DNA from: an uncultured bacterium
GTDB lineage: Bacteria; Fermentibacterota; Fermentibacteria; Fermentibacterales; JCC-6
Assembly (NCBI GenBank): GCA_964541235.1
Contig: CAZIPI010000014.1
Coordinates: 666 to 64,665, forward strand
Length of the DNA stretch: 64,000 nt
Direction: 5' to 3'
The notes below the pieces were generated by a model. It saw only the letters and a list, made by a program, of their open reading frames with translations, was not told where the DNA came from and searched no databases. The translations under genes were made by a program, and so were the position numbers. This document shows positions 1 to 42,816 of the stretch, in pieces. Each line of letters starts with the position of its first letter. Positions within the stretch are counted from its first letter, which is position 1.

Positions 1-1
1 G

Positions 2-163
2 ATATACGCCGGCTACTGGGCCACCACCGGCAACAGGACATTGACGGCTTTCTTCGGCAGCCCCACCGGCGACCTCTTCGAGTTCTGCCCGAATCTGCTG
101 CTGTCGGGAACAATGAACCTGTCTCCCATGACCTTCGGCGCCATAAAGGCGAGTTTCCAGTAG
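2..163 (+). CDS. C-terminal fragment of a third paralog of the candidate selenoprotein family (cut by window start)
   Basis: Frame-2 translation ends ...LLLSGTMNLSPMTFGAIKASFQ* (TAG 161-163). It matches the C-terminus of the 309..821 ORF (...YLNGTLSFQARTFGAIKASFD*). Confidence 0.4.
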   Translation: MYAGYWATTGNRTLTAFFGSPTGDLFEFCPNLLLSGTMNLSPMTFGAIKASFQ

Positions 164-200: not shown

Positions 201-821
201 ATGAGAAGTCTTGTGCTTGCGGGTCTGCTGGGATGTGCCGTGCTTGGCGCCGACATAGAGATCGGTACGAGCCAGTTCCCGGATGCGGTTCCCGTCTGCG
301 GGCCTTGAGTGCAGAACCTGCGCTACCAGGTGGTAGTGCTCGGAAGTGAGATCGGCAGCGCCATGACCATAGATGCCATCTCCTTTGTTGCGGCTCCGGA
401 AACAGGGGATTTCTCTTCATTCGACGAGTACAGGGTTTACATGGGTCCCACGACCCTGAACAGCCTGGGCACCGTCTTCGACGACAACTACAGCGGACCC
501 CGGCTCAATGTCTTCGACCATTCCAACGTGACGCACATGAATCAGGGCGGAATGGTGACCATCCCGCTGGACACTCCCTACTTCCACGCCGGGACCGGCA
601 ACCTGCTGATCGAGATAGATTACCAGATAGGCACGCCCATACCGGGCAATCAGAGCGTGTACGTCATGTACTGCTCGGTCCCGGATGACAGGATGCTGAG
701 GGCCAATGCTTCCGGCGCACAGAGCGGGCAGGCTTTCCCATTCCTTGCCCACATGTACCTGAACGGAACACTGTCATTCCAGGCGAGAACCTTCGGCGCC
801 ATCAAAGCGTCTTTCGACTAG
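201..821 (+). CDS. Secreted protein, candidate selenoprotein with in-frame UGA (306-308) in a C-G-P-U context; paralog 1
   Basis: ATG 201 encodes a signal-peptide-like MRSLVLAGLLGCAVLGA...FPDAVPVCGP followed by TGA at 306-308. The same frame continues without a break into the 170-aa ORF (VQNLRYQVVVLGSEIG...). A SECIS-like hairpin lies 11 nt downstream. If the UGA is a true stop, the CDS is 309..821 (GTG start). Confidence 0.45.
320..339 (+). promoter_or_regulatory. SECIS-like mRNA hairpin (8-bp stem gcgcuacc/gguagugc, loop AGGU) beginning 11 nt after UGA 306-308
   Basis: Base pairing was read directly from the sequence. The same structure and spacing recur in paralog 2. Confidence 0.4.
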
Positions 822-830
822 CGGGAGGTC

Positions 831-1466
831 ATGATCAGGGCAGCGCTCACCAGGAGTGTCACCAACCTGAAGTGGGCGCTGCCCTTTCTTTTCTGCAGCT
901 CCGCCGCGGCGGTCAGCATCGAGACAGGTGTTTCAGAGTTCCCGATGAACATTCCATTCTGCGGAGGTTGACACAGTCAGATGCGCTGCCAGGTGGTGGT
1001 GCCGGGAAGCGAAATGGGGGGCAGCGGAGTTTTTTCCGTGTTCATCGAGTCCATCTCCTTCAGGGCCGCCGCCCCTGAGACGGTTGCCTTCGACCGCTTC
1101 TCGGTATCGCTGGGCACAGCGGCGAACGGGTTCCTTGAGGAGAGTTTCCAGGGTAACTTTGCGGGAGAGAGAGTTAGCGTGTTTGAGGCAGAGGGGTGTT
1201 CGTTCACCCCTTCCGGGGGTTGGGTGTCCATCCCGCTGGAAAGGGAATACCTGTTCAACTGCTCGGATAACCTTCTCATAGAGGTGATCTACAGCGGAGC
1301 GGATGGCGGCATGCTCTACTGCGGTTTCGGGGAGACCGATGAAGTGCGGACTGTATGCAACGGAGACCACCAAAGCCCCCGGGGCTACACGTACCGGTTC
1401 GCACCCCATATTGTCATCTCCGGAACACTTGGAGTGAACACATTGTTCGGTGAGTGCATTCTGTGA
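831..1466 (+). CDS. Secreted protein, candidate selenoprotein with in-frame UGA (969-971) in a C-G-G-U context; paralog 2
   Basis: ATG 831 encodes MIRAALTRSVTNLKWALPFLFCSSAAAV...FPMNIPFCGG followed by TGA 969-971. The frame continues into HSQMRCQVVVPGSEMG..., paralogous to 201..821. If the UGA is a stop, the CDS is 981..1466 (ATG, with GGAGG 13 nt upstream). Confidence 0.45.
983..1002 (+). promoter_or_regulatory. SECIS-like hairpin (stem gcgcugcc/gguggugc with G-U wobbles, loop AGGU) beginning 11 nt after UGA 969-971
   Basis: It has the same loop, the same 8-bp stem register and the same 11-nt spacing as the hairpin at 320-339. Confidence 0.4.
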
Positions 1467-1510: not shown

Positions 1511-2869
1511 ATGAGGGTGATTCTGGCAGTTCTTGTCCTCGCCGCGGTAGCCGCCGCACAGTGCCCGTTGCGCCTGACCCCCGCCGAGGCGTGTTTCGAG
1601 GGTTCCCCCAGGTGCGCGCTCTATGTGGATTCCAACGGAGATCAGAGGTGCGACAACCCCGGTCCCCAACCGGTGATAGACCCCGAACCCGAGCCTGAGC
1701 CCGAACCTGAACCTGTTCCGGAAGAGGCTGCCCCGGTAGTCGAGGATACTCCCGTTATCCCTGAGCCCGAACCCACTCCAGCAGTCACCGAGGAAACCCG
1801 GCCGCAGCCCGTTGTGGAGGAGGCGATCCAGGAGGAAGAGGCTGTGCAGGAGGAACCTTCTCCCTCCGATACGCTTCCAGTGACAGCGGAGCCGCCGGCC
1901 TTCACAGGGTGCCCCCTTGGTCTGCCGCCCGAGGAGGCCTGTTACTCCGAGTCCCCAAGGTGCGCCCTCTTCACCGATTCGAACCAGGATGGAAGGTGCG
2001 ACAACCCGGGTGAAGCGGAGGAACGGCCCGACACCGTTCAGGCGGTTCCCGTAACGGGATGCCCCCTGGGGCTGCCTCCTGAGGCGGCATGCCCCGGCGA
2101 CCTGGCGCTGTGCCCGCACTGGTTCGGCCATTCGACAGGCGTCCCATGCTCCAACCCCTCCGGCGGGAGCAGAAGGGTTTACATAGCCCTTATCGCGCTC
2201 TCCATACTTATGATGGTCTCCACCGTGCTCAGCAGAAGGCTCCGGGGGAGAAAGCTGCATGACAGGCTCAGAAGGAGCATCGCACACAAAACGATCCACG
2301 GCTTGAGCCTTGTTACGCTGGGCTTCGGCATTCAGGGCTGTTTCTGCCCACTTGGAGCGTTCCAGTATGCCTTCCTGAAAGACGGCCTTCTGTTCCTGGG
2401 GTGGGCGGGTGTGGCCCTTCTGGTGATCCCATTCCTGTTCGCATCGTTCTTCGGCAGGATATTCTGCTGCTGGGTCTGTCCAATGGGCGCCATGCAGGAA
2501 CTGGCCTACCGGATCCCATCACCGGGCAAGCTGAACCCCCGGGGCCGTATCAGCAGGATCGTGGGCAGGTTTCGTTTCGTGGTGCTGGGAGGGCTGGTCA
2601 CTGTGCTGCTTCTGAACAGGTTCGGCATGATCCAGAGCCAGTGGCCCGCTATCTTCTGCAGGTTCGACCCCTTCCACACCATATTCACGCTGTTCCTCAC
2701 GGGGAGCATGATCGCAGCGGGTGTCACCCTTCTGCTCTCGGTCTTCGTGAGAAGGTTCTTCTGCAGGTACCTGTGCTTCCTGGGGGCAGCCCTGAGCCTC
2801 TTCGCGCCACTCAGGATCTACAGCCGCATCACGGGCAGGAAACAGCCGGCTTCAAGCTGCGACACCTGA
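1511..2869 (+). CDS. NapH/MauN-type membrane polyferredoxin (CxxCP motifs) fused to an N-terminal secreted domain with three Cys-rich repeats and a Pro/Glu-rich linker
   Basis: Signal peptide MRVILAVLVLAAVAAA. Three repeats of CPL-L-P-EAC...SPRCAL..DSN-D-RCDNPG. The C-terminal TM domain carries FCCWVCPMGAMQE and CRYLCFLGAALS, which are NapH-like CxxCP motifs. Confidence 0.55.
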   Translation: MRVILAVLVLAAVAAAQCPLRLTPAEACFEGSPRCALYVDSNGDQRCDNPGPQPVIDPEPEPEPEPEPVPEEAAPVVEDTPVIPEPEPTPAVTEETRPQPVVEEAIQEEEAVQEEPSPSDTLPVTAEPPAFTGCPLGLPPEEACYSESPRCALFTDSNQDGRCDNPGEAEERPDTVQAVPVTGCPLGLPPEAACPGDLALCPHWFGHSTGVPCSNPSGGSRRVYIALIALSILMMVSTVLSRRLRGRKLHDRLRRSIAHKTIHGLSLVTLGFGIQGCFCPLGAFQYAFLKDGLLFLGWAGVALLVIPFLFASFFGRIFCCWVCPMGAMQELAYRIPSPGKLNPRGRISRIVGRFRFVVLGGLVTVLLLNRFGMIQSQWPAIFCRFDPFHTIFTLFLTGSMIAAGVTLLLSVFVRRFFCRYLCFLGAALSLFAPLRIYSRITGRKQPASSCDT

Positions 2870-15916: not shown

Positions 15917-16896
15917 TCCGCGCCTTCCGGCAGCCCGTGCTCGAGGATGGACCTGATGATGTCCTCGATGGGGGCGCAGGGCGAGAAGCCCAGAAGATGC
16001 CTGAGAAGGGAAACGTCGGGAACCCTGCGCTGCATGTCCTCGAAGTCTCCCGGGTAAGCCTCGTCGTAGGGAGTGAGTTCAATCGCCGACTGTGAGCCGG
16101 TGATCTCCAGCACCCTTCTCGCCAGCTCCAGGATGGTTATCTCCTGCACCGAGCCGATGTTTATCACCTTGCCCACCGCCTCGGGGGCATCCATGAGCGC
16201 GATGACGCACCGGGTGACCTCATGCACCGAGCTGAAGCACCTTGTCTGGGTTCCGTTGCCGAAAACGGTGAGCGGCCGTCCAGTGAGCGCCTGGTTGATG
16301 AAGCGGGGAAGCACCATGCCGTACCTGCCGGACTGTCTTGGTCCCACTGTGTTGAACAGCCTGCCCACCACCACGGGAAGCCCCCTTGCCTTGTGGTAGG
16401 CCAGGGCCAGGAACTCGTCCAGCGCCTTGCTGCACGCGTAGCTCCAGCGGCTCCGGCTTGTGGCGCCCAATACTATGTCGCCGTCCTCCCTGAAGGGGGT
16501 CTCCCAGCTCTTGCCGTAAACCTCGCTGGTGGATGCCACGAATACCTTCGTTCCCCGTTCAGCGGCGGCTGACAGCACATTCTCGGTGCCGCCTATGTTT
16601 ATCTCGATGGTCTCCACCGGACGCCGAATGATGTTCTCCACCCCCACCGCTGCGGCGAGGTGGATCACCGCCCCGGATCGCCCCGCAAGGTCGCGGACCG
16701 TATCAGGCTCCATCACGGACCCCGTTTCCAGCCGGAACAGCGGGTTGCCGGAGAGGTGGGCCACATTCTTCAGGCTTCCCGTGGAGAGGTCGTCGAGCAC
16801 CAGGACGCTGCGCCCCCCCTCCACGATGGCTGTGCACAGGTGCGACCCGATGAAGCCGGCGCCCCCGGTGACCAGGAAGTCGTGCCGGGCGTTCAC
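15913..16896 (-). CDS. NAD-dependent epimerase/dehydratase (SDR family, UDP-sugar epimerase-like)
   Basis: VTGGAGFIGSHL Rossmann motif and YACSK catalytic motif. Confidence 0.7.
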   Translation of the reverse strand: MNARHDFLVTGGAGFIGSHLCTAIVEGGRSVLVLDDLSTGSLKNVAHLSGNPLFRLETGSVMEPDTVRDLAGRSGAVIHLAAAVGVENIIRRPVETIEINIGGTENVLSAAAERGTKVFVASTSEVYGKSWETPFREDGDIVLGATSRSRWSYACSKALDEFLALAYHKARGLPVVVGRLFNTVGPRQSGRYGMVLPRFINQALTGRPLTVFGNGTQTRCFSSVHEVTRCVIALMDAPEAVGKVINIGSVQEITILELARRVLEITGSQSAIELTPYDEAYPGDFEDMQRRVPDVSLLRHLLGFSPCAPIEDIIRSILEHGLPEGAD

Positions 16897-18092
16897 TAGC
16901 GGCTCACCACGCTCAGCAGGACCCCTGCGGCAATGGCGCTTCCAATGACCCCGGCCACGTTGGGACCCATGGCGTGCATCAGAAGGTGGTTCTTCGGGTC
17001 GGCCCTGCGGCCCTCCATCTCAGCTACCCTGGCGGCCACCGGGACTGCGCTCACACCGGCGGCGCCCACCAGGGGGTTGATGCGGTTCCCGCCCTTAAGG
17101 AAGAGGTTCATGAACTTGGCGAACAGCACCCCGCCGGCGGTGGCTATGGCGAAGCTCACCACACCCATGGCGAAGATCTTCAGGGAGGACAGGGTGAGGA
17201 AGGTGCCGGCCAGGGTGGTGGTTCCAACACTGAACCCCAGAAGCACCACCACGATGTTGTTCAGCGGGCCCTGCGCCCCCTCGGCAAGCCTGCGGGTCAC
17301 GCCGCTCTCCTTGAGAAGGTTGCCGAAGAACAGCATTCCCAGCAGCGGGATGGCGCCGGGAACGATGAAGGCCGTAACGATGAAAGCCACGATGGGGAAG
17401 AGGATCTTCTCCTTCTGGCTCACGAGCCTTGCCGGCTTCATTCGAATTGCGCGTTCGGCGGGAGTGGTGAGCAGCCTCATGATGGGGGGCTGTATCACAG
17501 GGACCAGCCCCATGTATGAGTATGCGGCCAGGGCTATTGCCCCAAGGAGATGGGGCGCCATCTGGCTGGCCACGAAGATGGCCGTGGGGCCGTCGGCGCC
17601 GCCGATTATGCCTATGGCCGAGGCCTCGCTGAGGCTGAAGTCGAGGAAGAGGGAGCCTATCAGCGTGAGGAAAATGCCTATCTGCGCCGCGGCACCCAGC
17701 AGGAGCAGCTTCGGGTTGGAGAGCATGGCGCTGAAGTCGGTCATCGCCCCTATCCCCAGGAAGATCAGCGGCGGGAAGAGCCCGCTCTTCACTCCGAAGT
17801 AGATCAGGCTGAACACGGAGCCAGGCTCCTGGTAGCCAATGGGCATAAGGGCCGGGTTGTAGGGCATGTTCCCGGCTATCATGCCGAAGCCTATGGGGAT
17901 CAGGAGAAGGGGCTCGTACTCCCTCCTGATGGCCAGGTAAACGAAGACGAGACCCAGGGCGATCATCACCAGGTTGCCCCAGGTCACCTGGCCGAACCCG
18001 GTGTCCCTCAGGAAACCGGCGAAGCTTATCCCTTCCCGGTCACCGGCTAGAAGGCACTGGAGCGCGGAGGCGAGGGAGGAGGCTTGCGACAT
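16896..18092 (-). CDS. Na+-transporting decarboxylase beta subunit (OadB/MmdB/GcdB family)
   Basis: Polytopic membrane protein with the characteristic NPLVGAAGVSAVP segment. It lies in an operon with a carboxyltransferase and a biotin carrier. Confidence 0.75.
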   Translation of the reverse strand: MSQASSLASALQCLLAGDREGISFAGFLRDTGFGQVTWGNLVMIALGLVFVYLAIRREYEPLLLIPIGFGMIAGNMPYNPALMPIGYQEPGSVFSLIYFGVKSGLFPPLIFLGIGAMTDFSAMLSNPKLLLLGAAAQIGIFLTLIGSLFLDFSLSEASAIGIIGGADGPTAIFVASQMAPHLLGAIALAAYSYMGLVPVIQPPIMRLLTTPAERAIRMKPARLVSQKEKILFPIVAFIVTAFIVPGAIPLLGMLFFGNLLKESGVTRRLAEGAQGPLNNIVVVLLGFSVGTTTLAGTFLTLSSLKIFAMGVVSFAIATAGGVLFAKFMNLFLKGGNRINPLVGAAGVSAVPVAARVAEMEGRRADPKNHLLMHAMGPNVAGVIGSAIAAGVLLSVVSR

Positions 18093-18101
18093 GGGCCCCT
18101 C

Positions 18102-18539
18102 CTATCCTATGCTCATGATAAGGGCGTTTTCCAGCACTGTGTCGCCCTCGCTGACGGAGATCCGGGTTACCTGGCCGGCCAGCGGAGATTCGATCTCGTT
18201 CTCCATCTTCATGGCTTCCATGATGGCCACTATCTGGCCCTTCTCCACGGTATCCCCCTGCCTGACGAGTATCTTCAGCATGTTCCCCGGCAGCGGGGAG
18301 AGTATGTCGCCCTTGTTCCCGTGGCCCCCGGGCGCCGTGGTCCGGTCCGGTGACGCCGATGCGTCGTGCACCCTCTTCTCCCGGACGATGGTGGGTGTCT
18401 TGGCGGGCTTCCGGGAGGGCGATTCCACGGTGGCGGTGAAGGTCCTGTCGCCCAGCCGAACCTCGACCTGGTCGTCCTCAAGCCTGCCGATGCTGACGCT
18501 GTAGGTGTTTCCGCAGATGGTAACATTGTACTCGGGCAT
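18102..18539 (-). CDS. Biotin carboxyl carrier subunit of the decarboxylase
   Basis: Biotinyl domain EAMKMENEI (AMKM). The likely start is MPEYNVT at 18539, preceded by GGAGGG. The track ORF is over-extended to 18677. Confidence 0.7.
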   Translation of the reverse strand: MPEYNVTICGNTYSVSIGRLEDDQVEVRLGDRTFTATVESPSRKPAKTPTIVREKRVHDASASPDRTTAPGGHGNKGDILSPLPGNMLKILVRQGDTVEKGQIVAIMEAMKMENEIESPLAGQVTRISVSEGDTVLENALIMSIG

Positions 18540-18937
18540 CACACCCTCCTGTCCCTGAGCCTCAGGCTTGTACGGGCAAGAAGGGTCTTGGCCCTCCCCG
18601 CAAGCCGCCAGGGTGAGTAAGGTTTGTCGTGGTCCTGCCACGTGATCTTTCTTTCGCATTCCTGATCGAGCCGGCACAGGTGGGTGTGGATCGCCACCGC
18701 CACCGCGGCCACTTCCTCGGGGGTGAGGCTCTTCTGCGCATCCGGCGCCGCCTTCTTCAGAACAGGGAGGGGGCTTCCGGACTCGGCCGCTCTCCTGAGA
18801 AGGGGGAGCAGCAGCGCCAGCAGCGCCAGACCGGCGAACACGGCGGCGACCCCAAGAACGGTCACCTGAACCCCGTCGGGCAGCAGTGAGGCCCCGGAGG
18901 ACTGGACAAGCGCCGAAAGCAGTGCCGCCGCCATCAT
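18539..18937 (-). CDS. OadG-like small membrane subunit of the Na+-pumping decarboxylase
   Basis: ~130 aa with a single TM helix ([21 protein letters not shown]) between mmdA and the biotin carrier. Its stop overlaps the downstream start (GTGATG). Confidence 0.45.
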
Positions 18938-20484
18938 AACGGTATGTTCCCGTGCTTCTTGGAGGGGATCTCCTGCCTCTTGCCCTGAAGCATCTCGAGG
19001 CTGCGGATTATCCTGAACCTTGTTTCCCCCGGCGTGATGACGGCATCAATGTAGCCCCGGGACGCTGCGTCGTAGGGGTTGGCGAACTTGTCGCGGTACT
19101 CCTGCACCAGCTCCGCCCTTCTGGCTTCGGGGTCTTCGGAGGCAGCCAGCTCGTTCCTGAAGATGACGTTCACCGCACCCTCGGGACCCATCACGGCGAT
19201 CTCGGCCGAGGGCCAGGCGTAGTTCACGTCGCTGCGGAGATGCTTGGAGGACATGACGTCGTAGGCTCCGCCGTAGGCCTTTCGAGTGATGACCGTGATC
19301 TTGGGCACTGTGGCCTCGGCGAACGCGTAGAGAAGTTTCGCGCCGTTCCTTATGATGCCGCCGTACTCCTGCTTGGTTCCCGGCATGAAGCCCGGAACGT
19401 CAACGAAGGTGACCAGTGGAATGTTGAAGGCATCGCAGAACCTTACGAAACGCGCGGCCTTCACCGAGGCGTCTATGTCCAGCACTCCCGCAAGGAAGCT
19501 GGGCTGGTTGGCCACCACCCCGACAGGCTTTCCGTTCATGCGCCCGAACCCGATGATGATGTTCTGGGCGTACGCCCTCTGTATCTCCAGGAACTCGCCA
19601 TGGTCAACGATGGCCGCAATGATCCTGCGCATGTCGTAGGGCTTGTTGGGATTCTCCGGAACGAAGTCTTCCAGCCATTCCTCGGCACGGTCGGGAGCGT
19701 CGCTGCAGGGTGTTGCTACCGGGTCCTCCATGTTGTTCTGCGGGATGTAGCTGAAAAGCTTCCTAACCAGAAGGAGGGCTTCCTTCTCGTCCTTGCACAC
19801 GATGTGGGAGACACCGCTTCTCTGGCTGTGCACGAAGGGGCCTCCAAGCTCGTCCTTCGTGACGTCCTCGCCGGTCACGGCCCGCACCACGTCAGGCCCG
19901 GTGACGAACATGTAGCTGGTGTTCTCCACCATTATGGTGAAGTCGGTTATTGCCGGGCTGTAAACGGCCCCTCCAGCGCACGGGCCGAGGATGACGCTGA
20001 TCTGCGGTATCACACCGGAGTAGAGGACGTTCTTCAGGAAGATGTCGCCGTAACCCGCCAGGCTCTCGATGCCCTCCTGTATCCTTGCGCCTCCGGAGTC
20101 GTTGAGGCCGATTAGGGGAGCGCCGTTCTGCGCGGCCAGGTCCATCACCTTCTTGATCTTCTCGGCGAAGGTCTCGGAGAGGGACCCCCCGAACACGGTG
20201 AAATCCTGGCTGAACACATAGACGAGCCTGCCGTCTATGGTGCCGTACCCGGTCACCACGCCGTCGCCGTAGTACTTCTGCTTTTCCAGGCCGAAGTTGG
20301 TTGACCGGTGGGTCTTCAGCTGGTCGAACTCCTCGAAGCTGCCGTCGTCCAGAAGTATCTCGAGCCTTTCCCTGGCGGTGAGGCTTCCCTGGGCGTGCTG
20401 TTTCGCGACCCTCTTCTCCCCGCCCCCCTGCAGCGCCAGTTCCCTGAGCTTCCGCAGCTTGCTGTTCCTGTCCGTTGAGCCCAT
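18934..20484 (-). CDS. mmdA: Methylmalonyl-CoA decarboxylase alpha subunit / acyl-CoA carboxyltransferase
   Basis: Full-length carboxyltransferase (516 aa) with conserved motifs. Confidence 0.8.
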
Positions 20485-20503
20485 TCCTGAAGAACCCTTT
20501 CCG

Positions 20504-20905
20504 TCAGTGCTGGCAGAGTTCGGTGAGAACCCTGCCGCTGGCCCTGGGGTGAATGAAAGCTATCTTCGTGCCTCCGGCCCCGGGTCTTGGTGTTTTGTCT
20601 ATCATATTCACCCCGGCCCCGGTCAGCTCGACCACCGCCTGAGCGGCGTCGGAGACCGAGTAGGCGATATGGTGCACTCCCTGCCCCCGGGACTCGAGGA
20701 AGGCGGCCACGGGGCTGTCGGGGGATGTGGGCTCCAGAAGCTCTATCCTGGATTCGCCCACGGCGAACATGGCCACTCTGACCTTCTGGGAGGGAACTTC
20801 CTCGATCCCGATAAGCTCGAGCCCCAGCACGTCACGGTAGAAGGCCATGGACTCATCGAGGTTCTCCACCCCGATGCCTATGTGGTCGATCTTCTTGATC
20901 TTCAT
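20504..20905 (-). CDS. mce: Methylmalonyl-CoA epimerase (VOC/glyoxalase family)
   Basis: 133 aa; [28 protein letters not shown]...HHIAY. Confidence 0.7.
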
Positions 20906-21852
20906 TCCGGGATCATCCTTTCGACGACCCGGGCAAGCCTTTGCCCGACTTCGTAAGGTGTTGTGGAACCTTCTGATATCTGCTGCAAAAGAACTTCCTT
21001 TGGACCGTACTCCCTGAGAAGGAGCCTCTCGGCGAACATGGCCCCGCGTTCTGCGAGTATGGACTGAAGTGTTCTGCGGGTGTTCTCGAGCCTCCGCTTA
21101 ACGGGGTCCACCTGTTCAAGCATGGAATCAACGGCCTGCCACAGGGCTTCGAGCCCCAGGCCGGAAACGGAGGAGACCCGTGCCACGGGAGGTTTGGGCC
21201 TTTCCGCGGGGACAAGCTCAAGCGCCGCCGCCACCGCTGCCTCGAGCTGGTCTATCCCGGGCCTGTCCGCCTTGTTAAGGACTATGAGGTCGCCGATCTC
21301 CATGATCCCGGCCTTCATGGCCTGAACGTCATCCCCTGCCCCCGGAACCAGCACGAGCATGGTAATGTCCGCAACCTCGGCGATCTCCACCTCGGCCTGT
21401 CCCACACCCACCGTCTCGAGGATCACGGGATCGTAGCCGGCGGCGGCCATGAGCATGGCTGCGTCGCGGGTGGCTCCGGAAAGCCCTCCCAGGTGCCCGC
21501 GGCTGCCCATGCTTCTGATGAAGACGGCCGGATCGGTGGAGTGGGACTGCATCCTCAGCCTGTCGCCCAGCAGGGCGCCTCCTGTGAAGGGGGATGAGGG
21601 GTCAACCGCCAGAACTCCCACCCTGGCCCCCCGTTTCCGGAAGTGGCCTATCATCCTGTCCAGAAGCGTGCTCTTCCCTGCCCCGGGAGGGCCGGTGACG
21701 CCAATGGTCCGGTGGTGTGGAACCGACGGGAAGAGGGCATGCAGCAGACCCGCGGCCTCGGGGGCACCGTTCTCCACAATGCTCAATCCCCGGGCAAGCG
21801 CCCGGATATCGCGGCCTGTAATGCCCTCTGCCAGGGATTCCCCGGGGATCAT
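20902..21852 (-). CDS. meaB: Methylmalonyl-CoA mutase-associated GTPase MeaB/ArgK
   Basis: P-loop GVTGPPGAGKST and NKAD motifs. Confidence 0.8.
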   Translation of the reverse strand: MIPGESLAEGITGRDIRALARGLSIVENGAPEAAGLLHALFPSVPHHRTIGVTGPPGAGKSTLLDRMIGHFRKRGARVGVLAVDPSSPFTGGALLGDRLRMQSHSTDPAVFIRSMGSRGHLGGLSGATRDAAMLMAAAGYDPVILETVGVGQAEVEIAEVADITMLVLVPGAGDDVQAMKAGIMEIGDLIVLNKADRPGIDQLEAAVAAALELVPAERPKPPVARVSSVSGLGLEALWQAVDSMLEQVDPVKRRLENTRRTLQSILAERGAMFAERLLLREYGPKEVLLQQISEGSTTPYEVGQRLARVVERMIPE

Positions 21853-21855
21853 ACG

Positions 21856-22257
21856 TCAGCTTCTGTTCTTCTGTTCGTTCTCGATGAATGAGATCACATC
21901 GGAGGCGGGCGTGCCGGGGGTGAAGATCGCCCTGAACCCCGCTTCCATGAGGCCCGGGATGTCCTCATCGGGTATGACGCCGCCGCCGAAGAGCACTATG
22001 TCCGGGGCGCCCTTCTCCCTGAGTATCCTGGCCACTTCAGGAAAGAGGTGGTTGTGGGCTCCGGAGAGAAGCGAGAGCCCCACGAAGTCAACATCCTCCT
22101 GAACCGCGGCATCGGCGATCGCCTGGGGGGTCTGCCTGATGCCGGTGTATATGACTTCCATTCCAGCGTCGCGGAGAGCCCTGGCGATGTACTTGGCCCC
22201 CCTGTCATGACCGTCCAGCCCGGGTTTGCCGATAAGAACCCTTATCCTGCGCTCCAT
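21856..22257 (-). CDS. Methylmalonyl-CoA mutase small subunit (B12-binding domain)
   Basis: [36 protein letters not shown]12-binding DxHxxG motif. The track ORF is extended to 22377. Confidence 0.7.
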
Positions 22258-22441
22258 GGATGCCTCTTTCCGGTTTTCCGGGAGCTTCCGCTCCAAAAGG
22301 TGGGTACGCCTATATTGCGTATCATCTTCAATTTCACCGTTTCTGTAAAGACAGCGCCCTTTCTCGGGCAGGTCCATGGAACAATATTACACAGGTGCTG
22401 TTACTCACTGAGCGTGCCACAGCAAAAGGAAAGGTATATCA

Positions 22442-27715: not shown

Positions 27716-28314
27716 TTCGCTCCGTCCCTGGTCAGATGGGGCACACCCCTTCCGCGCCTGAACGCTTCCATGTTGACTGCCAGTGCCTTTGGCGGCACCC
27801 TCTCCTCTATTGCCTTTTCCCAGCTTGCGGGGTCTATCCCGGGGATGAGCGTCGAAGCCGCTCCCAGCAGGGCCACGTTCACCACCTTGAAGTTGGACAG
27901 CTCCCTGGCTATGGCCAGCACCGGGACCTCGGTGCAGGGGATGCCCTTCTCAATCACCAGCCGGTCAACGTCGGGGTACTCCGCCGAACCGGTGTTCACC
28001 GTCATGGGGTTTATCCTGATGTCGGCGGAGACCAGCCTGCCCGAGGGGGAGAGGTAATGGGCCCATCGAAGGCCTTCCATCTTCTCCAGGGCAAGCACCA
28101 TGTCGGCTGTTCCCTGCTCCACCAGAACGCTGAACACCTTCTCGCCGAACCTGACGTGGCTCGAGACGCTCCCCCCCCGCTGGGCCATCCCGTGGACCTC
28201 GCTCTTCTTAACGTCGAACCCGCTGTTCCAGGCCGCCGCGCAGATGACCTCGCTGGCCAGCAGAATGCCCTGCCCGCCGGTTCCGCAAAGGATGATGTTT
28301 GTCGTTCCGCTCAT
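27712..28314 (-). CDS. iorB: Indolepyruvate:ferredoxin oxidoreductase beta subunit
   Basis: MSGTTNIILCGTGGQGILLAS. Its start overlaps the iorA stop (TGATG). The track ORF extends to 28392. Confidence 0.7.
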   Translation of the reverse strand: MSGTTNIILCGTGGQGILLASEVICAAAWNSGFDVKKSEVHGMAQRGGSVSSHVRFGEKVFSVLVEQGTADMVLALEKMEGLRWAHYLSPSGRLVSADIRINPMTVNTGSAEYPDVDRLVIEKGIPCTEVPVLAIARELSNFKVVNVALLGAASTLIPGIDPASWEKAIEERVPPKALAVNMEAFRRGRGVPHLTRDGAK

Positions 28315-30110
28315 CAGACCACCCCCTCCAGATCCTTGCTGAGGGCCCCCACCGGGCACACCTGAACGCACAGATTGCAGTTGGGCCAGCACTGCATCTC
28401 GCTGATGACCGGGACGTTCTTCTCCGCATCCCAGCTTATGGCGGGACAGCCCAGTCTAAGGCAGGCCTTGCAGTGGACGCACTTCCCGGGGTCGTGGACA
28501 GCAACGGTCTTGCGCAGCGGCCTGTATGCCATGATACAGGGCCGCCTGGTGATTATCACGCTGAGTTCCTGCGCCTCGGTCTCCTCCCTGAGAACCCTTT
28601 TCATCTCTTTCAGGTCGTGGGGGTCCACCACCCTGACCCTGTTCACACCGCAGGCCCTGACCATCTGCACAAGGTCCAGCGCCGGGGCGGGTTCACCCCT
28701 GAGGTTCTTCCCCGTCGAGGGGTTCTGCTGACCCCCGGTCATGGCGGTGAGGCTGTTGTCCATGATCATCACGGTACCCTTGTTGCCGTTGTACACCATG
28801 TCTATCAGCCCGGTGATGCCGGAATGTATGAAGGTGGATTCGCCGATGGCCGCCACCAGCCTGGGCATGCCTTCCCGGTCAAGCACCTTTTCGATCCCCG
28901 CCAGAACACCCACCGCTGCTCCCATGCAGACCGTTGTTTCCAGGGCGTTGTACGGCGGCATCAGACCCAGTGTGTAGCAGCCGATGTCTCCCGTGGAGCT
29001 GTACTTCATCCCTGCAAGGGTGTGGAAGGCGCCCCTGTGGGGGCATCCCGGACACAGGGACGGCGGTCTTCCGGGGAGTTCCGTCGCCTCGAAGGGGGAG
29101 GGCGTGACGGACTCGGGCTTCAGGGCTTTCCTCACCAGCTCAGGGTTCAGCTCGCCCTCGACGGGTATGAAGCTCTTTCCCTGTGCGTCGATGAGAAAGC
29201 GGCTCCTTATGCTCTCCTCCAGGTAGGGCTCCCCCTCCTCGACGATGATGACCCTGGAAACGAGACCGATGAACTCCTCTATGAGCTTCCAGGGGAGCGG
29301 GTTGGTGATCCCCAGCTTGAGGACGCTGGCGCCCGGGTACGTTTCGCGCACGTACTGGTAGGATATCCCGGAGGTTATGACCCCGATCGAGGCATCGTTG
29401 ATCTCCATGCGGTTGAGCGGGCTTTCCGCTCCCCACTCGGCAAGCCTCTCGAGCCTGTCCTCCACACGGCTGTGCATCCTGCGGGCGTTGGCGGGGATCG
29501 GGACCCTTTTCGCGATGTCCTTCACGTAGCCCTTGACCGGTACTTCCTCCCGGTCCGCGACTTTCACCAGGCTTTTCGAGTGGCAGACCCTGGTGGTAAC
29601 CCTGAGAAGAACAGGGGTGTCGAACTCCTCGCTGATACGGAAGGCCTCCCTGGTGAAGTCAAGCGCCTCCTGGCTGTCGGATGGCTCAAGCACCGCAAGC
29701 TTCGCCGCACGGCCCATGAGCCTGTTGTCCTGCTCGTTCTGGGACGAGTGCATGCCCGGATCGTCGGCGCTCACCACCACTATGCCCCCGGTGGCGCCTA
29801 TGTAGCTCAGGGTGAAGAGGGGATCCGCGGCGACATTGAGCCCCACGTGCTTCATGGCCGACAGCACCCTTGCCCCGGCAAAGCTGGCCCCGGCCACCAC
29901 TTCGAGGGCAACCTTTTCGTTCGGCGCCCACTGTGCGGTAATCTCGGGGTAGTGCTCCCCGATGGTTTCCAGTATCTCCGTCGAGGGAGTGCCGGGATAG
30001 GCCGAGGCAAAGTGCGCCCCGCTCTCCCACGCCCCCCGGGCGATAGCCTCGTTGCCGGACAGGAACAAGGTGCCCGATCTCTGCTGGTTCAGCGTCTTCC
30101 CCATTCTCAT
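28314..30110 (-). CDS. iorA: Indolepyruvate:ferredoxin oxidoreductase alpha subunit (TPP and 4Fe-4S)
   Basis: 598 aa; TPP-binding GDIGCYTLG; C-terminal CVHCKACLRLGCP and CNLCVQVCP ferredoxin motifs. Confidence 0.8.
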   Translation of the reverse strand: MRMGKTLNQQRSGTLFLSGNEAIARGAWESGAHFASAYPGTPSTEILETIGEHYPEITAQWAPNEKVALEVVAGASFAGARVLSAMKHVGLNVAADPLFTLSYIGATGGIVVVSADDPGMHSSQNEQDNRLMGRAAKLAVLEPSDSQEALDFTREAFRISEEFDTPVLLRVTTRVCHSKSLVKVADREEVPVKGYVKDIAKRVPIPANARRMHSRVEDRLERLAEWGAESPLNRMEINDASIGVITSGISYQYVRETYPGASVLKLGITNPLPWKLIEEFIGLVSRVIIVEEGEPYLEESIRSRFLIDAQGKSFIPVEGELNPELVRKALKPESVTPSPFEATELPGRPPSLCPGCPHRGAFHTLAGMKYSSTGDIGCYTLGLMPPYNALETTVCMGAAVGVLAGIEKVLDREGMPRLVAAIGESTFIHSGITGLIDMVYNGNKGTVMIMDNSLTAMTGGQQNPSTGKNLRGEPAPALDLVQMVRACGVNRVRVVDPHDLKEMKRVLREETEAQELSVIITRRPCIMAYRPLRKTVAVHDPGKCVHCKACLRLGCPAISWDAEKNVPVISEMQCWPNCNLCVQVCPVGALSKDLEGVV

Positions 30111-35349: not shown

Positions 35350-36213
35350 TCAACGGGAAGAGCTTCTGAGCATGGAGAGCAGCCTGTCCAGCTCATCCAG
35401 CGATGCGTACTCTATCTCGATGCTGCCCCTGCCCCCCGAGTCCCTGACCCTTACCCTTGTTCCCAGAACCCTTTGAAGGCTCTCTTCCAGCTGGGCGATC
35501 TCGGGGGAGCTTCGACGGGTGCCTGCGCGGGGCTTGACCGGCTTTCTGCGGAGCCTGACGAACTCCTCAAGTGCCCTTACGCTCATCCCCCTGTGAACCG
35601 CCAGCCCCGCCGCCCGCACTATGCCCTCTTCGTCGGAGAGACCGAGGAGGGCCCTTCCATGACCCATGGAGAGGGCTCCCGACCTGAGCATGGCCCTGAC
35701 CCTCTCAGGAAGCTCAAGAAGCCGCTGGAAGTTCGCGACGGCCGAGCGGCTGAGGCCAACCTGCCTTCCCAGTTCCTCCTGCGTCAGTTGGAACTCCTGG
35801 CAGAACCTGTGGAATGCCTCAGCCTTCTCCATCGGGTTCAGATCGGCCCTCTGAATGTTCTCCACGAGAGCCAGCGCCAGCATCTGCCGGTCATCGGCCT
35901 CGCGGAGCACCGCCGGGACCTCCTGAAGCCCGGCCATGGAAGAGGCTCTGACCCTCCTCTCTCCCGCGATGAGCTGGTACCTGTCTCCAGCCCTTCTTAG
36001 AACAACAGGCTGAAGCACTCCCTGGGCCCGTATGGAGTCGCTGAGGGACTGCAGGTCCTCCTGGCTCCAGTCCACCCTGGGCTGAAAAGGGTTCGAATCA
36101 ATGAGACGGATAGGGACCATGGCCGGCGCATCGGCCTCCCTGCCGCTTTCGGGAACACTTGGCAAAAGCGCCTCGAGCCCCCTTCCCAGAACCTTCCTGC
36201 CTTTTTCCTTCAC
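35350..36213 (-). CDS. parB: Chromosome partitioning protein ParB/Spo0J
   Basis: GLEALLP N-terminus, ParB box, HTH. Confidence 0.85.
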   Translation of the reverse strand: MKEKGRKVLGRGLEALLPSVPESGREADAPAMVPIRLIDSNPFQPRVDWSQEDLQSLSDSIRAQGVLQPVVLRRAGDRYQLIAGERRVRASSMAGLQEVPAVLREADDRQMLALALVENIQRADLNPMEKAEAFHRFCQEFQLTQEELGRQVGLSRSAVANFQRLLELPERVRAMLRSGALSMGHGRALLGLSDEEGIVRAAGLAVHRGMSVRALEEFVRLRRKPVKPRAGTRRSSPEIAQLEESLQRVLGTRVRVRDSGGRGSIEIEYASLDELDRLLSMLRSSSR

Positions 36214-36965
36214 CTCTCCATCACCTCCCTCGCAAGGCTCAGGTAACTGCCGGCGCCCTTTGAGAAAGGGTCGTACAGAATAGCCGGCTTTCCGAAGCTC
36301 GGCGCTTCGCCCAGTTTTACGTTCCTTGGTATGGTGGTGTTGAACAGCGCCTTGCCAAGGTGTGCCCTGGCCTCCTCGAACACTTCCCTGCTCAATTTCA
36401 GCCTTGAGTCGTACATCGTGACGACTACACCGAACAGAAGGAGCCTCCGGTTCCAGGCGGAACGCACCCTGGCTATGGTCTGCAGCAGGTGGGAAAGCCC
36501 TTCCAGTGCGTAGTACTCGCTCTGCACCGGCAGTATGACGCTGTCCGCGGCCACCAGCCCGTTCACCGTGAGAAGGCCGAGGGAGGGGGGGCAGTCTATC
36601 AGCACGTAGGAATACCTCTCGACCCTTCCCCTGAGGGCCCTGTCGAGGAAGAACTCCCTTCTGTCCTGTGAGGCCAGTTCCGTCTCCAGCCCGGCCATGT
36701 CCGTGGAACCGGGGACCAGGTCCAGTCCCTCGATGTCGGTTCCCACTATCAGTTCATCCAGGGGCCTTCTGCCTGCTATCAGGGCGTGCATCCCCTCCAT
36801 GCCCGCCTGCTGCCTTCCCAGTCCGCTGGTGGCATTGGCCTGGGGGTCGAGGTCAACCACCAGAACGTCCCTGTTGTTCACGGCAAGGCAGGCGCCGAGG
36901 TTTATCACTGTAGTGGTCTTGCCAACGCCGCCCTTCTGGTTGGCGACCGCAATTATCCTTGTCAT
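36210..36965 (-). CDS. parA: Chromosome partitioning ATPase ParA/Soj
   Basis: IAVANQKGGVGKTTT deviant Walker A. Confidence 0.9.
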   Translation of the reverse strand: MTRIIAVANQKGGVGKTTTVINLGACLAVNNRDVLVVDLDPQANATSGLGRQQAGMEGMHALIAGRRPLDELIVGTDIEGLDLVPGSTDMAGLETELASQDRREFFLDRALRGRVERYSYVLIDCPPSLGLLTVNGLVAADSVILPVQSEYYALEGLSHLLQTIARVRSAWNRRLLLFGVVVTMYDSRLKLSREVFEEARAHLGKALFNTTIPRNVKLGEAPSFGKPAILYDPFSKGAGSYLSLAREVMER

Positions 36966-37600
36966 CTCTTCCTTTTCACAGCTTTGAACCCCGATCCGGG
37001 ATGGCGAAACTGCACCATGAACCCCGGGCGGTCAAGAGGCGGTGAGGGCAGGGCAACCACAAGCTTTTCGCATGGAATGGAATACGGTTCCGCGACCCTG
37101 AGCGTGAGAGTGCAGCCGTCGGGCGCCGTCCCCGCAACGCGGGACAGGAGCTGTTCAGGGTCCTCCACTGCCCTCGCGGTAAAAGCGGTGTCCTTCGGGA
37201 AGGGGCCGGCCTCCTCGATGCCGCAGTGCATCGCCGCCGCGTTCCCCAGCCCCAGGGAGTCCAGCGCCCAGAGAAGGAACAGATACCTCTTCCTCCTTCT
37301 CTCCACCATGGTGACGTTCATTCCAAAGATCGCCAGGACCATTCCCGGGAACCCCGCTCCGCTCCCGATGTCCACCACCGGCCCTGCTTCCTTCAGGAGG
37401 GGCATGTACGCGGCGGACTCAAGGACGTGCCTTCCCCAGAGGCGTTCCATCTCCCGCGGACCCAGCAGGTTGCCGAACCTGCCCCCCATGCCGTGCTCAA
37501 GAAGGACCGCGAACTCGGAAAGCATCTGCAGGGCGCTCCCCGTGGGCTCCACCCCCAGCGCTCGGAGCGAAGAGGAAGCGTCATCCGGAATGTGTTTCAC
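36962..37600 (-). CDS. rsmG: 16S rRNA m7G527 methyltransferase RsmG (GidB)
   Basis: VVDIGSGAGFPG motif; position between parA and mnmG. Confidence 0.8.
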   Translation of the reverse strand: MKHIPDDASSSLRALGVEPTGSALQMLSEFAVLLEHGMGGRFGNLLGPREMERLWGRHVLESAAYMPLLKEAGPVVDIGSGAGFPGMVLAIFGMNVTMVERRRKRYLFLLWALDSLGLGNAAAMHCGIEEAGPFPKDTAFTARAVEDPEQLLSRVAGTAPDGCTLTLRVAEPYSIPCEKLVVALPSPPLDRPGFMVQFRHPGSGFKAVKRKR

Positions 37601-39377
37601 GTGGAACCTTTCCCCTGAGGGCCTGCAGTGTCATCACTTCCACATCCGACGCCCTCACCCCGGGAAGGCGTGAAGCCTCCCTTATGGTTAGCGGTTCGGC
37701 ATTGCATATGGCCTGCCTGGCTTCGATGGACATACCGGACAGCAGTTGCGCCGGGGGGACAGGCAGGTCGAGGTGTTCTCCTGCGGCGTGGACCCGCCTC
37801 TGATGCCTGCTGATGTATCCTCCGTACCTGATGTCGTTGAATACGCACCCGACTCCCTCGGGGTCCACCTCCTTCAACTCCGGGCAGAGCCCTGTGATCA
37901 CTCTGGTGGTGGTCTCGGGCCTTCTGCAGAGGGATTCCAGGCCGCTGCCGCCTATGAGAAGCCGGGCCCTCTCCCTGTGGGCTTCCAGAGCCTTCATCCT
38001 GCCCAGTCGCTCCCCTCCCAGGACACCAAGTCCGGTGCCGAACTCAATAAGCCTTGCGTGGGCGTTGTCCTGTCTCAGGTGAAGCCTGTTCTCGGCCCTG
38101 CTGGAGAAGAGCCTGTAGGGCTCCTCGATACCCTTGCTGACAAGGTCGTTGACCATGACGCCCAGGTAGCTCTGTTGCCTGTCCGGAACCGCAGGGGGCA
38201 TGTCCAGTGCTGTCCTTGCGGCGTTCGCGCCGGCGAGAAGGCCCAGCGCCGCTGCTTCCTCATACCCGGACGTCCCGAGGAGCTGGCCGGCCGCGAACAG
38301 GTTCACGGTCCCGCGAAGCCTGAGCGTTTCATCGAACGTGCCCCAGGCCAGCCTTCCGTACTCCACGGCATACCCGAACAGGGCGATCTCGGCCCTGTGG
38401 AAGCCGTCCATGCTTCTCAGCATCCGGTACTGGACGTCCTGGGGCATGCTGGTGGAAAGACCGTTCAGGTATGAAAGCCTTGAATGCTCCGCCACCGGCT
38501 CAACGTGTACAGGGTGATCGGAGCGCTCCGGGAACTTGAACACCTTGTCCTCGAAGCTTGGGCAGTACCTCGGGCCCCTTCCCCCTATGCGCCGGGAGAG
38601 CAGGGGCGATCTTCCGGCGTTCTCCCTTACGGCCTCGGCGGTCCTGACGTTTGTCCTTGCAAGGTGGCACAGCCTCTCCCCGCAGGTGCGTTCGCCGGTC
38701 TCCACGCTGAACCTGAAAGGGAAACGGTGAGCCTCCTGAACCTCCAGAGCGTCCAGATCAATGGAAGAGGTGACGATCCTGGGAGACGTCCCTGTCTTGA
38801 AACGTTCCACGTGGAACATTCCCGAGAGGAACCTGTGCAGCTCAACAGAGGGAAGGCCCCCGTCCCTTCCGCCGGGCCAGCGTTCATCCCCCCTGTAAAG
38901 GGTTCCGCCAAGGTACGTGCCGGTGGCGAGTACGAATGAGTCGCCCGGTACCGAGCGGCCACCGTCCAGCAGCGCTTCGGTGAACCTTTCGGGGCCCCCG
39001 CCGAGAGCCAGCGCCATGCCCTTCACCACCGTTACCCCGGCGGCGTCCAGCGCCCGCCTCACGAAGCGCGGGTACAGCCTTGAGTCGGACTGAACCCTCG
39101 GCCCCCACACGGCGGGCCCCCTGCTCATGTTCAGCATGCGGAACTGCAGTGATGTGCAGTCGGCCGCCAGCCCCATTATGCCTCCGAGGGCGTCGATCTC
39201 CCTTACGAGACATCCCTTGGCCACGCCTCCGATGGCGGGGTTGCAGGGCATCAGGGCTATGGCGCCCGGTTCCGCCGTAACAAGCACGGCGCGGGCCCCG
39301 ACCCTCGCCGCGGCCATTGCCGCCTCGGCGCCGGCGTGGCCGCCGCCCACCACCACCACCGTTCTACTTGCCGACAC
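37581..39377 (-). CDS. mnmG: tRNA uridine-5-carboxymethylaminomethyl modification enzyme MnmG (GidA)
   Basis: FAD-binding VVVGGGHAGAEAA, ~598 aa, conserved synteny. Confidence 0.9.
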   Translation of the reverse strand: MSASRTVVVVGGGHAGAEAAMAAARVGARAVLVTAEPGAIALMPCNPAIGGVAKGCLVREIDALGGIMGLAADCTSLQFRMLNMSRGPAVWGPRVQSDSRLYPRFVRRALDAAGVTVVKGMALALGGGPERFTEALLDGGRSVPGDSFVLATGTYLGGTLYRGDERWPGGRDGGLPSVELHRFLSGMFHVERFKTGTSPRIVTSSIDLDALEVQEAHRFPFRFSVETGERTCGERLCHLARTNVRTAEAVRENAGRSPLLSRRIGGRGPRYCPSFEDKVFKFPERSDHPVHVEPVAEHSRLSYLNGLSTSMPQDVQYRMLRSMDGFHRAEIALFGYAVEYGRLAWGTFDETLRLRGTVNLFAAGQLLGTSGYEEAAALGLLAGANAARTALDMPPAVPDRQQSYLGVMVNDLVSKGIEEPYRLFSSRAENRLHLRQDNAHARLIEFGTGLGVLGGERLGRMKALEAHRERARLLIGGSGLESLCRRPETTTRVITGLCPELKEVDPEGVGCVFNDIRYGGYISRHQRRVHAAGEHLDLPVPPAQLLSGMSIEARQAICNAEPLTIREASRLPGVRASDVEVMTLQALRGKVPRETHSG

Positions 39378-40569
39378 AGAGAACGCTCAGCGCCCGCTCC
39401 ACCGCAGTGAGGTCGTGGCGGATACCCGTGATCTCCTCTGCAATGGTCTCGGCCTCTCGTATGAGCCCGGCTGCGATCCCGGGCTCCTGGTCCGCCGTTG
39501 CCCGGGCCTCCAGAAGCAATGACAGGACCCGGGATGCCATGTGCTCAGCGGGAGACGAAGACATGTCAACGAGGCATTTCACAAGTTCCCCGACCCCCTC
39601 GCCTGTCACTGATGAAACCCGTTGCCCGTTGAGGCTGTGGGTGTCGCTTTTGGACAGGACCGTAAGAACCCTTGCCCCCCTTGAGAGAAGCACTTCAGGC
39701 GCCCCCTCTCCGCCGGGGCTGAGCCAAACCACCATGTCCTCGGGTCGGATCCCGCTCAGCGAAGCCGCAAGCGCCGCCCCGTCCAGGGCTCCGCCCCCGA
39801 ATCCCGGCGTGTCTATCAGAAGGAACCTCCGCCCCTGAAGGGAGACCTCCCTGCGGGCGCCGTCACGGGTGGTCCCGGGTTCCGGATGGACAAGGGCCAC
39901 GAATGAGCCGCACAGCGTGTTCATCAGGGTTGACTTCCCGGCGTTCACCCTTCCGGTCAGATAGACCTTCGCTGCCCTGGAAAGCCCTTGTGCGCTCTCG
40001 AGAAGTTCCCTGGCGGACCCGACGGCCGCCTCAAGGGCATCCACTGGGTCATGCCGGCACCGGCTGCTCTCCTCGGGGAACTCGATGGACCCCTCGATGT
40101 CCTCCAGGGCTTTCGAGATCATCTTTTGAAGGGCGGGCACGGCAACGTCAAGCGGGTCCGCCTTGCGGCCCGTCTCCACCGCCGCGGCCAGGGCAAGTAT
40201 CTGCTGGCCGGACACCCTTCCGTTGCGCCAGGCCCTTCCTGTGAACTCCCCGGGCAGCGCGCCTCTGGCTCCCGCCCCGATAACTGCGTCCAGAAGGGCC
40301 GAGACGAACTCGGGTATGCCGTGGCAGATGAGTTCCACCATCTCTTCCCCGGTGTAGCTGCCGCCCTCGGGCCAGGCCAGCGCCACCACATCCCCGGCGC
40401 GCGGGATCACGGCAACAGCCCTCCGCATGCCCCTGAGCCTGCCCCCCTCAAGCCCTGCAAGACCCTCCACCAGGGCGCAGCACCCGGGGCCGGAGAGCCT
40501 CACCACCGCCAGGGCAGACAGCCCCGGCGGAGTGGCAACGGCGGCTATGATATCGTTTTCAGGGGTCAC
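39364..40569 (-). CDS. mnmE: tRNA modification GTPase MnmE (TrmE)
   Basis: GRVNAGKSTLMN G-domain and a C-terminal ...LCVGK. The GTG start at 40569 overlaps the yidC stop (GTGA). The 692-aa track ORF is an over-extension. Confidence 0.8.
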   Translation of the reverse strand: MTPENDIIAAVATPPGLSALAVVRLSGPGCCALVEGLAGLEGGRLRGMRRAVAVIPRAGDVVALAWPEGGSYTGEEMVELICHGIPEFVSALLDAVIGAGARGALPGEFTGRAWRNGRVSGQQILALAAAVETGRKADPLDVAVPALQKMISKALEDIEGSIEFPEESSRCRHDPVDALEAAVGSARELLESAQGLSRAAKVYLTGRVNAGKSTLMNTLCGSFVALVHPEPGTTRDGARREVSLQGRRFLLIDTPGFGGGALDGAALAASLSGIRPEDMVVWLSPGGEGAPEVLLSRGARVLTVLSKSDTHSLNGQRVSSVTGEGVGELVKCLVDMSSSPAEHMASRVLSLLLEARATADQEPGIAAGLIREAETIAEEITGIRHDLTAVERALSVLCVGK

Positions 40570-42128: not shown

Positions 42129-42348
42129 CGTTCCCTTCCTCCGGTACGGGGTCGTATCCTCCCCGGTTCCATGGGTTGCACCTGAGTATCCTCTTCAGTG
42201 CCAGTCCCGATCCCCTGGCAACGCCGAACCTTTCCACCGCTGTTCTGGCGTAGCTGCTGCATGACGGCGTGAAGCGGCATGACCTTGGCAGAAGAGGGGA
42301 CAGGAATCTCCTGTATCCGTCTATCAGGAAAAGGACCATGCCCTTCAT
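42115..42348 (-). CDS. yidD: Membrane protein insertion efficiency factor YidD
   Basis: YRRFLSPLLPRSCRFTPSCSSYA signature. Confidence 0.85.
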   Translation of the reverse strand: MKGMVLFLIDGYRRFLSPLLPRSCRFTPSCSSYARTAVERFGVARGSGLALKRILRCNPWNRGGYDPVPEEGNDGDQ

Positions 42349-42722: not shown

Positions 42723-42816
42723 TCAGAACCTTCCTGCCGCCCCGGGTGGCCATTCTGGCCCTGAACCCATGCTTCCTTACCCTTGAGATCCTGCTGGGCT
42801 GATAGGTTCTCTTCAT
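42682..42816 (-). CDS. rpmH: 50S ribosomal protein L34
   Basis: Manual translation of the minus strand gives [44 protein letters not shown]. It is below the ORF-track length cutoff. Confidence 0.85.

Follow-up and report, generated by a model that had tools for sequence, protein, structure and literature searches.

In Escherichia coli fdhF, the minimal selenocysteine (Sec) insertion sequence (SECIS) is a SelB-binding stem-loop located 11 nt past the UGA, with a GGUC loop and a bulged U in its stem. The bacterial SECIS consensus comprises a 3–9-nt loop on a 4–16-bp stem, with a G at loop position 1 or 2 followed by a G or U (PMC13188914). It also specifies 16–37 nt between the UGA and the loop and a minimum free energy (MFE) of ≤ −7.5 kcal/mol, and the elements of different bacterial genes usually resemble one another little (PMC13188914). 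Here, we describe two hairpins from an uncultured bacterium of the Fermentibacterota that are very probably bacterial SECIS elements directing Sec insertion. They lie in a 64,000-nt stretch of contig CAZIPI010000014.1 (positions 666–64,665 of the forward strand; assembly GCA_964541235.1), which we call the window, and each follows an in-frame UGA in one of two tandem paralogous genes. They would be SECIS elements of the canonical type in an apparently undescribed, Fermentibacteria-restricted family of secreted proteins with a Cys-x-x-Sec (CxxU) motif.

Gene A (type 2; 201–821, plus strand, 206 codons) and gene B (type 3; 831–1466, plus strand, 211 codons) each contain one in-frame UGA and share an architecture, which consists of a signal peptide, a mature N-terminus (reading DIEIGTSQFPDAVPV-CGPU in gene A) and a beta-sandwich domain. 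The signal peptides are N-terminal basic-hydrophobic segments, called by eye in both genes and confined to the part before the UGA. The gene A UGA (306–308) closes a CGPU motif (TGC GGG CCT TGA, 297–308, plus strand), and that of gene B (969–971) closes a CGGU motif (TGC GGA GGT TGA, 960–971, plus strand). Read through the UGA, gene A gives MRSLVLAGLLGCAVLGADIEIGTSQFPDAVPVCGP-U-VQNLRYQVVVLGSE... and gene B gives ...AVSIETGVSEFPMNIPFCGG-U-HSQMRCQVVVPGSE...; the two products are 34% identical in an alignment that runs unbroken over the UGA, with both flanks conserved. The gene A UGA is probably decoded as Sec. The 3′ end of a third tandem copy, the type 1 paralogue, occupies positions 1–163 (plus strand; match to P0013), and its UGA and hairpin fall just outside the window on the 5′ side. 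The full type 1 gene on the same contig (L001 9238–9855) reads ...PLCAT-UGA-TESLRYQVVVLGSE, with the same hairpin.

Exactly 11 nt downstream of each UGA, at the positions and with the sequences given in the original prediction, lies an 8-bp stem capped by an AGGU loop. The gene A hairpin is GCGCTACC-AGGT-GGTAGTGC (320–339, plus strand), and the gene B hairpin, whose stem includes three G-U pairs, is GCGCTGCC-AGGT-GGTGGTGC (983–1002, plus strand). As had been noted from the sequence, the two differences between the copies convert U-A and A-U pairs to U-G and G-U and leave the helix intact. A G-U pair that the original prediction does not mention occupies position 3 of the stem in both hairpins, and because several stem pairs are G-U, the helix can form on the sense strand only. 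The isolated 20-nt hairpins fold at −12.1 (gene A) and −10.8 kcal/mol (gene B). The window contains the 20-nt motif twice where 0.04 occurrences would be expected, and a hairpin with an 8-bp stem and a 4-nt loop starts at +11 for just three of 2066 TGA triplets on both strands, two of them being those of genes A and B. The third, at position 29717 (plus strand), is TGCTCGTT-CTGG-GACGAGTG; it is antisense to a gene at 28314–30110 and lacks a G at loop positions 1–2, and we take it as a chance occurrence.

Homologues were collected by protein searches and locus retrieval. This yielded 35 loci, whose named records are Candidatus Fermentibacteria, Hyd24-12, Fermentibacteraceae, Sabulitectum and Aegiribacteria, and a set of 43 distinct copies (42 gene copies from these loci and the window, plus one further Cys-form lineage). 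The genes occur in tandem, with two or three paralogues per locus. In 36 of the distinct copies, which come from 10 or more Fermentibacteria metagenome-assembled genomes (MAGs) or metagenomes, a UGA occupies the same alignment column of the C-x-x-U motif, and all 36 retain the hairpin. Its stem is 8 bp long in 31 copies, 7 bp in three and 6 bp in two; the loop is AGGU in 34 of the 36 and AGGC in the other two; and the hairpin starts at +11 nt in 33 copies and at +14 nt, after one additional codon, in three. The base directly 5′ of the UGA is U in 33 of the 36 copies (NNU-UGA, with any amino acid) and C in three, and the Cys forms mostly read GCC-TGY at the corresponding place; this U may reflect a codon-context requirement for recoding.

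These features agree with the bacterial SECIS consensus. The hairpin lies inside the open reading frame (ORF), immediately 3′ of an in-frame UGA. Its 4-nt loop and its stem (8 bp in the window and 6–8 bp across the 36 UGA homologues) are within the consensus sizes, and the loop, A-G-G-U, has a G at position 2 followed by another G. The UGA-to-loop distance is 19 nt (11 + 8), or 22 nt where the stem begins at +14, and both window hairpins are more stable than the MFE threshold. The structure is also conserved past coding need and tied to the UGA, which is itself conserved among orthologues and paralogues and has Cys-aligned homologues, as selenoprotein genes do. Compared with the elements behind the consensus (bSECISearch; PMC13188914), the hairpin is unusually invariant in its nucleotides, given that the paralogues share only 25–50% protein identity. 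As in catalogued CxxU and UxxC selenoproteins (thioredoxin-fold oxidoreductases, DsbA-like, AhpD-like and others; Table 1, PMC13188914), Sec would stand two residues from a Cys, Cys homologues exist and the host is anaerobic.

Seven copies, from two separate lineages, encode Cys at the UGA column and so carry a CxxC motif, and these copies have lost the stem. One lineage comprises six CGAC copies (P0015–P0019), all of them third-position paralogues with TGT or TGC in place of UGA. The other is an independent CGDC lineage, represented among the seven by P0122, which has about 25 relatives; CGDC and CGFC lineages together include P0108, P0116, P0122 and P0131. The CGAC copies keep the peptide LRYQ(V/A)LVPGS, yet pairing is possible at only 3–5 of the eight stem positions, and their folding energies range from 0 to −2.6 kcal/mol, apart from one copy that reaches −7.8 kcal/mol in a different register. 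In P0122, the peptide is MRYQTLYLEDE, the Arg codon is AGA and no stem forms (−0.7 kcal/mol). Across the Cys copies, the Arg codon is AGG or AGA and never CGC, as against CGC in 32 of 32 UGA copies. In the CGAC copies, Tyr is TAT in four of six, and GTT, GTG and GTA are in equal use for the last Val. Mean identity is 46–58% among the UGA copies and 78% among the CGAC copies, so it is the more diverged group that has kept the hairpin.

The original prediction had named homologues that keep the peptide while synonymous changes break the stem as evidence against a SECIS. Such homologues exist, only where the UGA has given way to a Cys codon, and a stem loss confined to Cys-codon homologues is what a SECIS predicts. 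In a neighbor-joining tree, the CGAC clade is nested within Sec-containing type 3 paralogues; with midpoint rooting, this arrangement suggests that Sec was probably replaced by Cys first and that the hairpin decayed afterwards. Reversion from Sec to Cys is described as rare in bacteria (PMC13188914). Both states occur side by side in sample ERZ16299717, which holds two Fermentibacteria populations (L002 and L025): the third paralogue has Sec (CGGU) in one and Cys (CGAC) in the other, and both populations retain Sec in paralogues 1 and 2.

The nucleotides of the hairpin are constrained more tightly than the protein requires. When the UGA copies are aligned by codon, two sequences that share an amino acid differ in its codon at a frequency of 0.16 in the hairpin codons vs 0.52 elsewhere. 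Of 189 eight-codon windows, the six with the lowest values all overlap the hairpin. Likewise, when conserved 4- and 6-fold degenerate columns are ranked by codon entropy, the bottom five all fall in the hairpin (e.g. Arg CGC in 20 of 20 and Val GTG in 22 of 22). Across 22 sequences, 97% of stem cells are paired, with compensatory changes from A-U to G-C in two sequences and from C-G to U-A in one. The covariation score is 0.204 vs 0.169 for shuffles, with one of 500 shuffles reaching the observed score, and RNAalifold recovers the same helix. The original prediction had cautioned that part of the conservation reflects coding and that the changes in the stem are structure-neutral rather than compensatory. 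The first point holds in that the RYQ peptide, which forms the first strand of the domain, is constrained, but the nucleotides are constrained further, and only after a UGA; the second is true of the window copies, whereas a few compensatory changes do appear across the family. Gene conversion between tandem copies was considered as a source of the identical 20-mer and ruled out, as the motif is kept in distant lineages with compensatory changes and decays without the UGA.

A covariance model trained on 22 UGA copies and run against 265 kb recovered all UGA copies at E ≤ 3e-4, including 14 distinct copies that it had not seen. Within the window, it matches 306–353 (E = 9e-16) and 969–1016 (E = 6e-14). 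It detected no Cys copy in the 265 kb (best E = 0.24), and nothing else there was significant. The UGA column, the coupling of hairpin and UGA, the synonymous constraint, the covariance model and the consensus features all agree with the SECIS-like reading that was first proposed from the two window copies.

The closest described counterparts are the elements of E. coli fdhF and fdnG, which likewise lie within the coding region, start at +11 nt and have a small loop with G-G-U (AGGU here). Of the fdhF-like geometry first proposed, the 11-nt spacing and the GU of the loop stand; the bulged U is absent and the stem, closed by C-G, is longer and perfect (8 bp), and in lacking the bulge the element departs from the fdhF type (a bulged U and a loop G-U at +11 nt). 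The extended lower helix that reaches back toward the UGA is not conserved in this family either, and sequence likeness to fdhF and fdnG is limited to the loop GGU. By analogy, the element may act in the manner of the fdhF SECIS, of which it is not a copy. On the E. coli model, the apical part of the hairpin (the AGGU loop and G+C-rich stem) would be bound during translation by SelB carrying GTP and Sec-tRNA(Sec), and the fixed spacing would put the SelB complex at the ribosomal A site as the UGA arrives. Sec would then be inserted in place of termination. SelB binding and Sec insertion at the two UGAs are thus far inferred. Rfam, scanned at gathering thresholds over the full window and permissively over positions 150–1500, returned no SECIS-like family, only chance matches with E > 1.

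Several observations weigh against a SECIS. Unlike the fdhF element, the hairpin has no bulged U. Folding z-scores are unremarkable (−1.9 and −0.3 for 45 nt; −0.2 and +1.1 for 75 nt), and in a 75-nt context the minimum-energy fold of the gene B region takes a competing pairing. The case for a SECIS rests on comparative evidence and not on thermodynamics. In that evidence, changes on both sides of the stem are few (three sequences); conservation is partly at the protein level, given that these nucleotides also code for the initial beta-strand of a domain found widely; and the CGAC clade probably represents one evolutionary event, leaving two independent contrasts between hairpin and UGA rather than seven. 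As for the decoding machinery, in the window it was sought through Pfam annotation of 47 ORFs, with other genes annotated separately. Neither the 64-kb window nor ∼250 kb from related loci yielded selA, selB or selD, and no tRNA-Sec was found in the window or 17 loci, the remaining parts of the genomes not having been searched. A literature search found no paper linking Fermentibacteria (Hyd24-12, Sabulitectum or Aegiribacteria) to selenocysteine.

The alternative that survives best, though we judge it improbable, is that the UGA is recoded as something other than Sec, either by hairpin-stimulated read-through with a near-cognate or suppressor tRNA (inserting Trp, Cys, Gly or Arg) or by partial reassignment of the codon. 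Downstream structures can stimulate read-through in other systems, and no Sec machinery was found in the window or the related loci. Several lines of evidence argue for Sec instead. UGA terminates 31 of the 49 long ORFs in the window and is the commonest true stop there, indicating that the genetic code has not been reassigned; a lineage-wide reassignment of UGA was ruled out on this ground. A scan of frame-specific G+C content around in-frame UGAs found no other in-frame UGA with coding signal on both sides in the window. A second scan, for an uninterrupted frame with a SECIS-like hairpin after the UGA in the window and all loci, returned this family only. Moreover, alternation of the recoded residue with Cys in a CxxC-type motif is the hallmark of Sec, and both the loop sequence and the spacing of the hairpin agree with the SECIS consensus.

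A second alternative, which we consider quite unlikely, takes the UGA as a genuine stop that separates an upstream ORF of 35–46 residues from a separate downstream ORF, with the hairpin serving in translational coupling, pausing or attenuation. Public gene calls are drawn in this way. Every copy is split into a 36–46-aa ORF up to the UGA and a 144–170-aa ORF after it, and potential starts (GTG at 309 and ATG at 981) stand just past the stops in the window. Gene A is represented by its post-UGA part only (P0001, 170 aa) and gene B by a 46-aa ORF (831–971) and a 161-aa ORF (981–1466), and the database homologues of UGA copies are all called at 121–173 aa with a first residue just past the UGA. 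However, the downstream start is not conserved, being M, V or L at varied positions, and a stop at the UGA would cut the signal peptide and the first Cys of CxxU off from the domain. The Cys forms, in turn, are single unbroken ORFs with the same architecture, and frame and spacing are conserved across paralogues that are only 25–35% identical.

Still less credible is the idea that the hairpin is an accident of coding, in which the codons for the RYQVVV(L/P)GS strand happen to be self-complementary. A strand of the form [RK][YC]Q followed by hydrophobic residues is indeed conserved in thousands of domain proteins without CxxU, multi-repeat proteins included, and the stem mostly varies on one side only. 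Yet conservation at synonymous sites is about threefold higher in the hairpin than outside it, the five conserved 4- and 6-fold degenerate columns of lowest codon entropy lie there too, the Cys forms keep the peptide with other codons and no stem, and the covariance model separates UGA from Cys copies completely, so this explanation is largely refuted. Finally, the presence of a stop codon is all that points to pseudogenes or to assembly or sequencing errors, a notion with next to no probability that is refuted by the recurrence of this UGA in 36 distinct sequences whose samples and assemblers are independent (ENA, JGI, NCBI and Logan) and by intact frames in which, outside the hairpin, synonymous changes greatly outnumber replacements.

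The proteins of genes A and B, with U replaced by C, have no match in Pfam or NCBIfam. Nearly all families examined in the 2026 prokaryotic selenoprotein catalogue have a defining Pfam, NCBIfam, TIGRFAM or CDD model, and the present family is therefore probably absent from that catalogue. The products would be secreted proteins of about 190 residues: the N-terminal segment suggests export, the CxxU motif comes about 20 residues after the mature N-terminus, and the domain that follows is a beta-sandwich rather than a thioredoxin fold. For a full-length Cys form, the model of the CxxC segment is of low confidence. The beta-sandwich domain that follows the UGA (309–818 of the window; proteins P0072–P0218) has no Pfam family but is widespread, with 4779 representatives at E ≤ 1e-3 in an exhaustive profile search. 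Many domain proteins are 550–6700 residues long with 3–15 repeats, and the three examined in detail lack CxxC; lipoprotein-like domain proteins of about 560 aa with three repeats form a large class. Among the top 150 matches, most single-domain proteins begin only at the RYQ strand; these truncated proteins make up at least 21 clusters at 50% identity, consistent with further UGA forms, and a few other single-domain proteins are full-length CxxC forms. As to function, a reasonable guess, though no more than that, is extracytoplasmic thiol/selenol redox chemistry or metal(loid) binding.

The genomic neighborhood offers context for such a role. Directly 3′ of the tandem genes, at 1511–2869 (plus strand), the window encodes a NosR/NapH-family membrane ferredoxin-type protein (Fer4_5; Pfam and NCBIfam matches). 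Its N-terminus contains three Cys-rich repeats (CPxxLxPxEAC...SPRCALxxDSNxDxRCDNPG) and a PEPEPEP linker. A NosR/NapH-like gene occupies this position in every long-enough locus of the window's lineage and in most across Fermentibacteria, and the protein is a possible redox partner, although this is context and not proof. The full order in the window's lineage is tRNA-Asp (minus strand), two or three paralogues, the NosR/NapH-like gene, a protein with a type IX secretion system (T9SS) tail, a methyltransferase, an SNF transporter and DsbD_2. The tRNA-Asp(GTC) gene (L001 9030–9106, minus strand) is about 590 bases 5′ of the window and has the same place in 14 other loci; almost all Fermentibacteria loci carry it a short way 5′ of the selenoprotein cluster. 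In L025, a gene on the 5′ side of the cluster encodes a serine recombinase. In distant lineages, an ArsR-type helix-turn-helix regulator adjoins the tandem Sec genes (L026/L027 4418–4774), and another pair of loci has an adjoining ars-operon-like block (L028/L029 5577–10498) with an ArsP permease, an LMWPc-rhodanese protein, an SBF/Acr3-like transporter, thioredoxins and a methyltransferase. These ars-type neighbors may tie the family to metal(loid)s.

Farther along, the window includes other recognizable regions. The chromosomal origin region lies at 35350–50487 and comprises minus-strand parB, parA, gidB, gidA, trmE and yidC, followed by dnaA (43069–44412), dnaN, a DciA-like gene, gyrB and gyrA. 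A block at 16896–22377 (minus strand) encodes methylmalonyl-CoA decarboxylase/mutase functions (OAD_beta, a biotin carrier, a carboxyltransferase, a glyoxalase-type epimerase, MeaB and a B12-binding subunit), a gene set that would fit fermentation of the propionate or succinate type. A 1191-aa ORF at 50463–54038 (plus strand) has a good coding signal and matches no Pfam domain at E ≤ 1e-5.

Public annotation of the examined family members is wrong, as the split genes lose both the signal peptide and the likely active site. The family also provides a clean comparative case of a coding-region hairpin that is maintained only while the UGA is present, and its compact 20-nt SECIS could be used in tests of heterologous selenoprotein expression with a non-proteobacterial SelB. 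New selenoprotein families turn up regularly; what sets this one apart is the combination of tandem Sec paralogues, a non-thioredoxin fold, the joint loss of hairpin and UGA, and a phylum new for the trait. We lean slightly toward the view that it is an uncatalogued, Fermentibacterota-restricted selenoprotein family and the first evidence that this phylum decodes Sec, its members being secreted, non-thioredoxin proteins with up to three tandem Sec paralogues, a near-frozen SECIS and, in the replacement of Sec by Cys, a natural knock-out. Members of the phylum are reported to be abundant in anaerobic digesters (Kirkegaard et al. 2016), and the related MAGs in this analysis come from sediments and wastewater. 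If the UGA does encode Sec, one selenoprotein family, and probably one phylum, would be added to the map of selenium use, and the presence of a secreted CxxU beta-sandwich beside a NosR/NapH-like Fe-S membrane protein hints at an undescribed extracytoplasmic redox or metal(loid) system in these bacteria.

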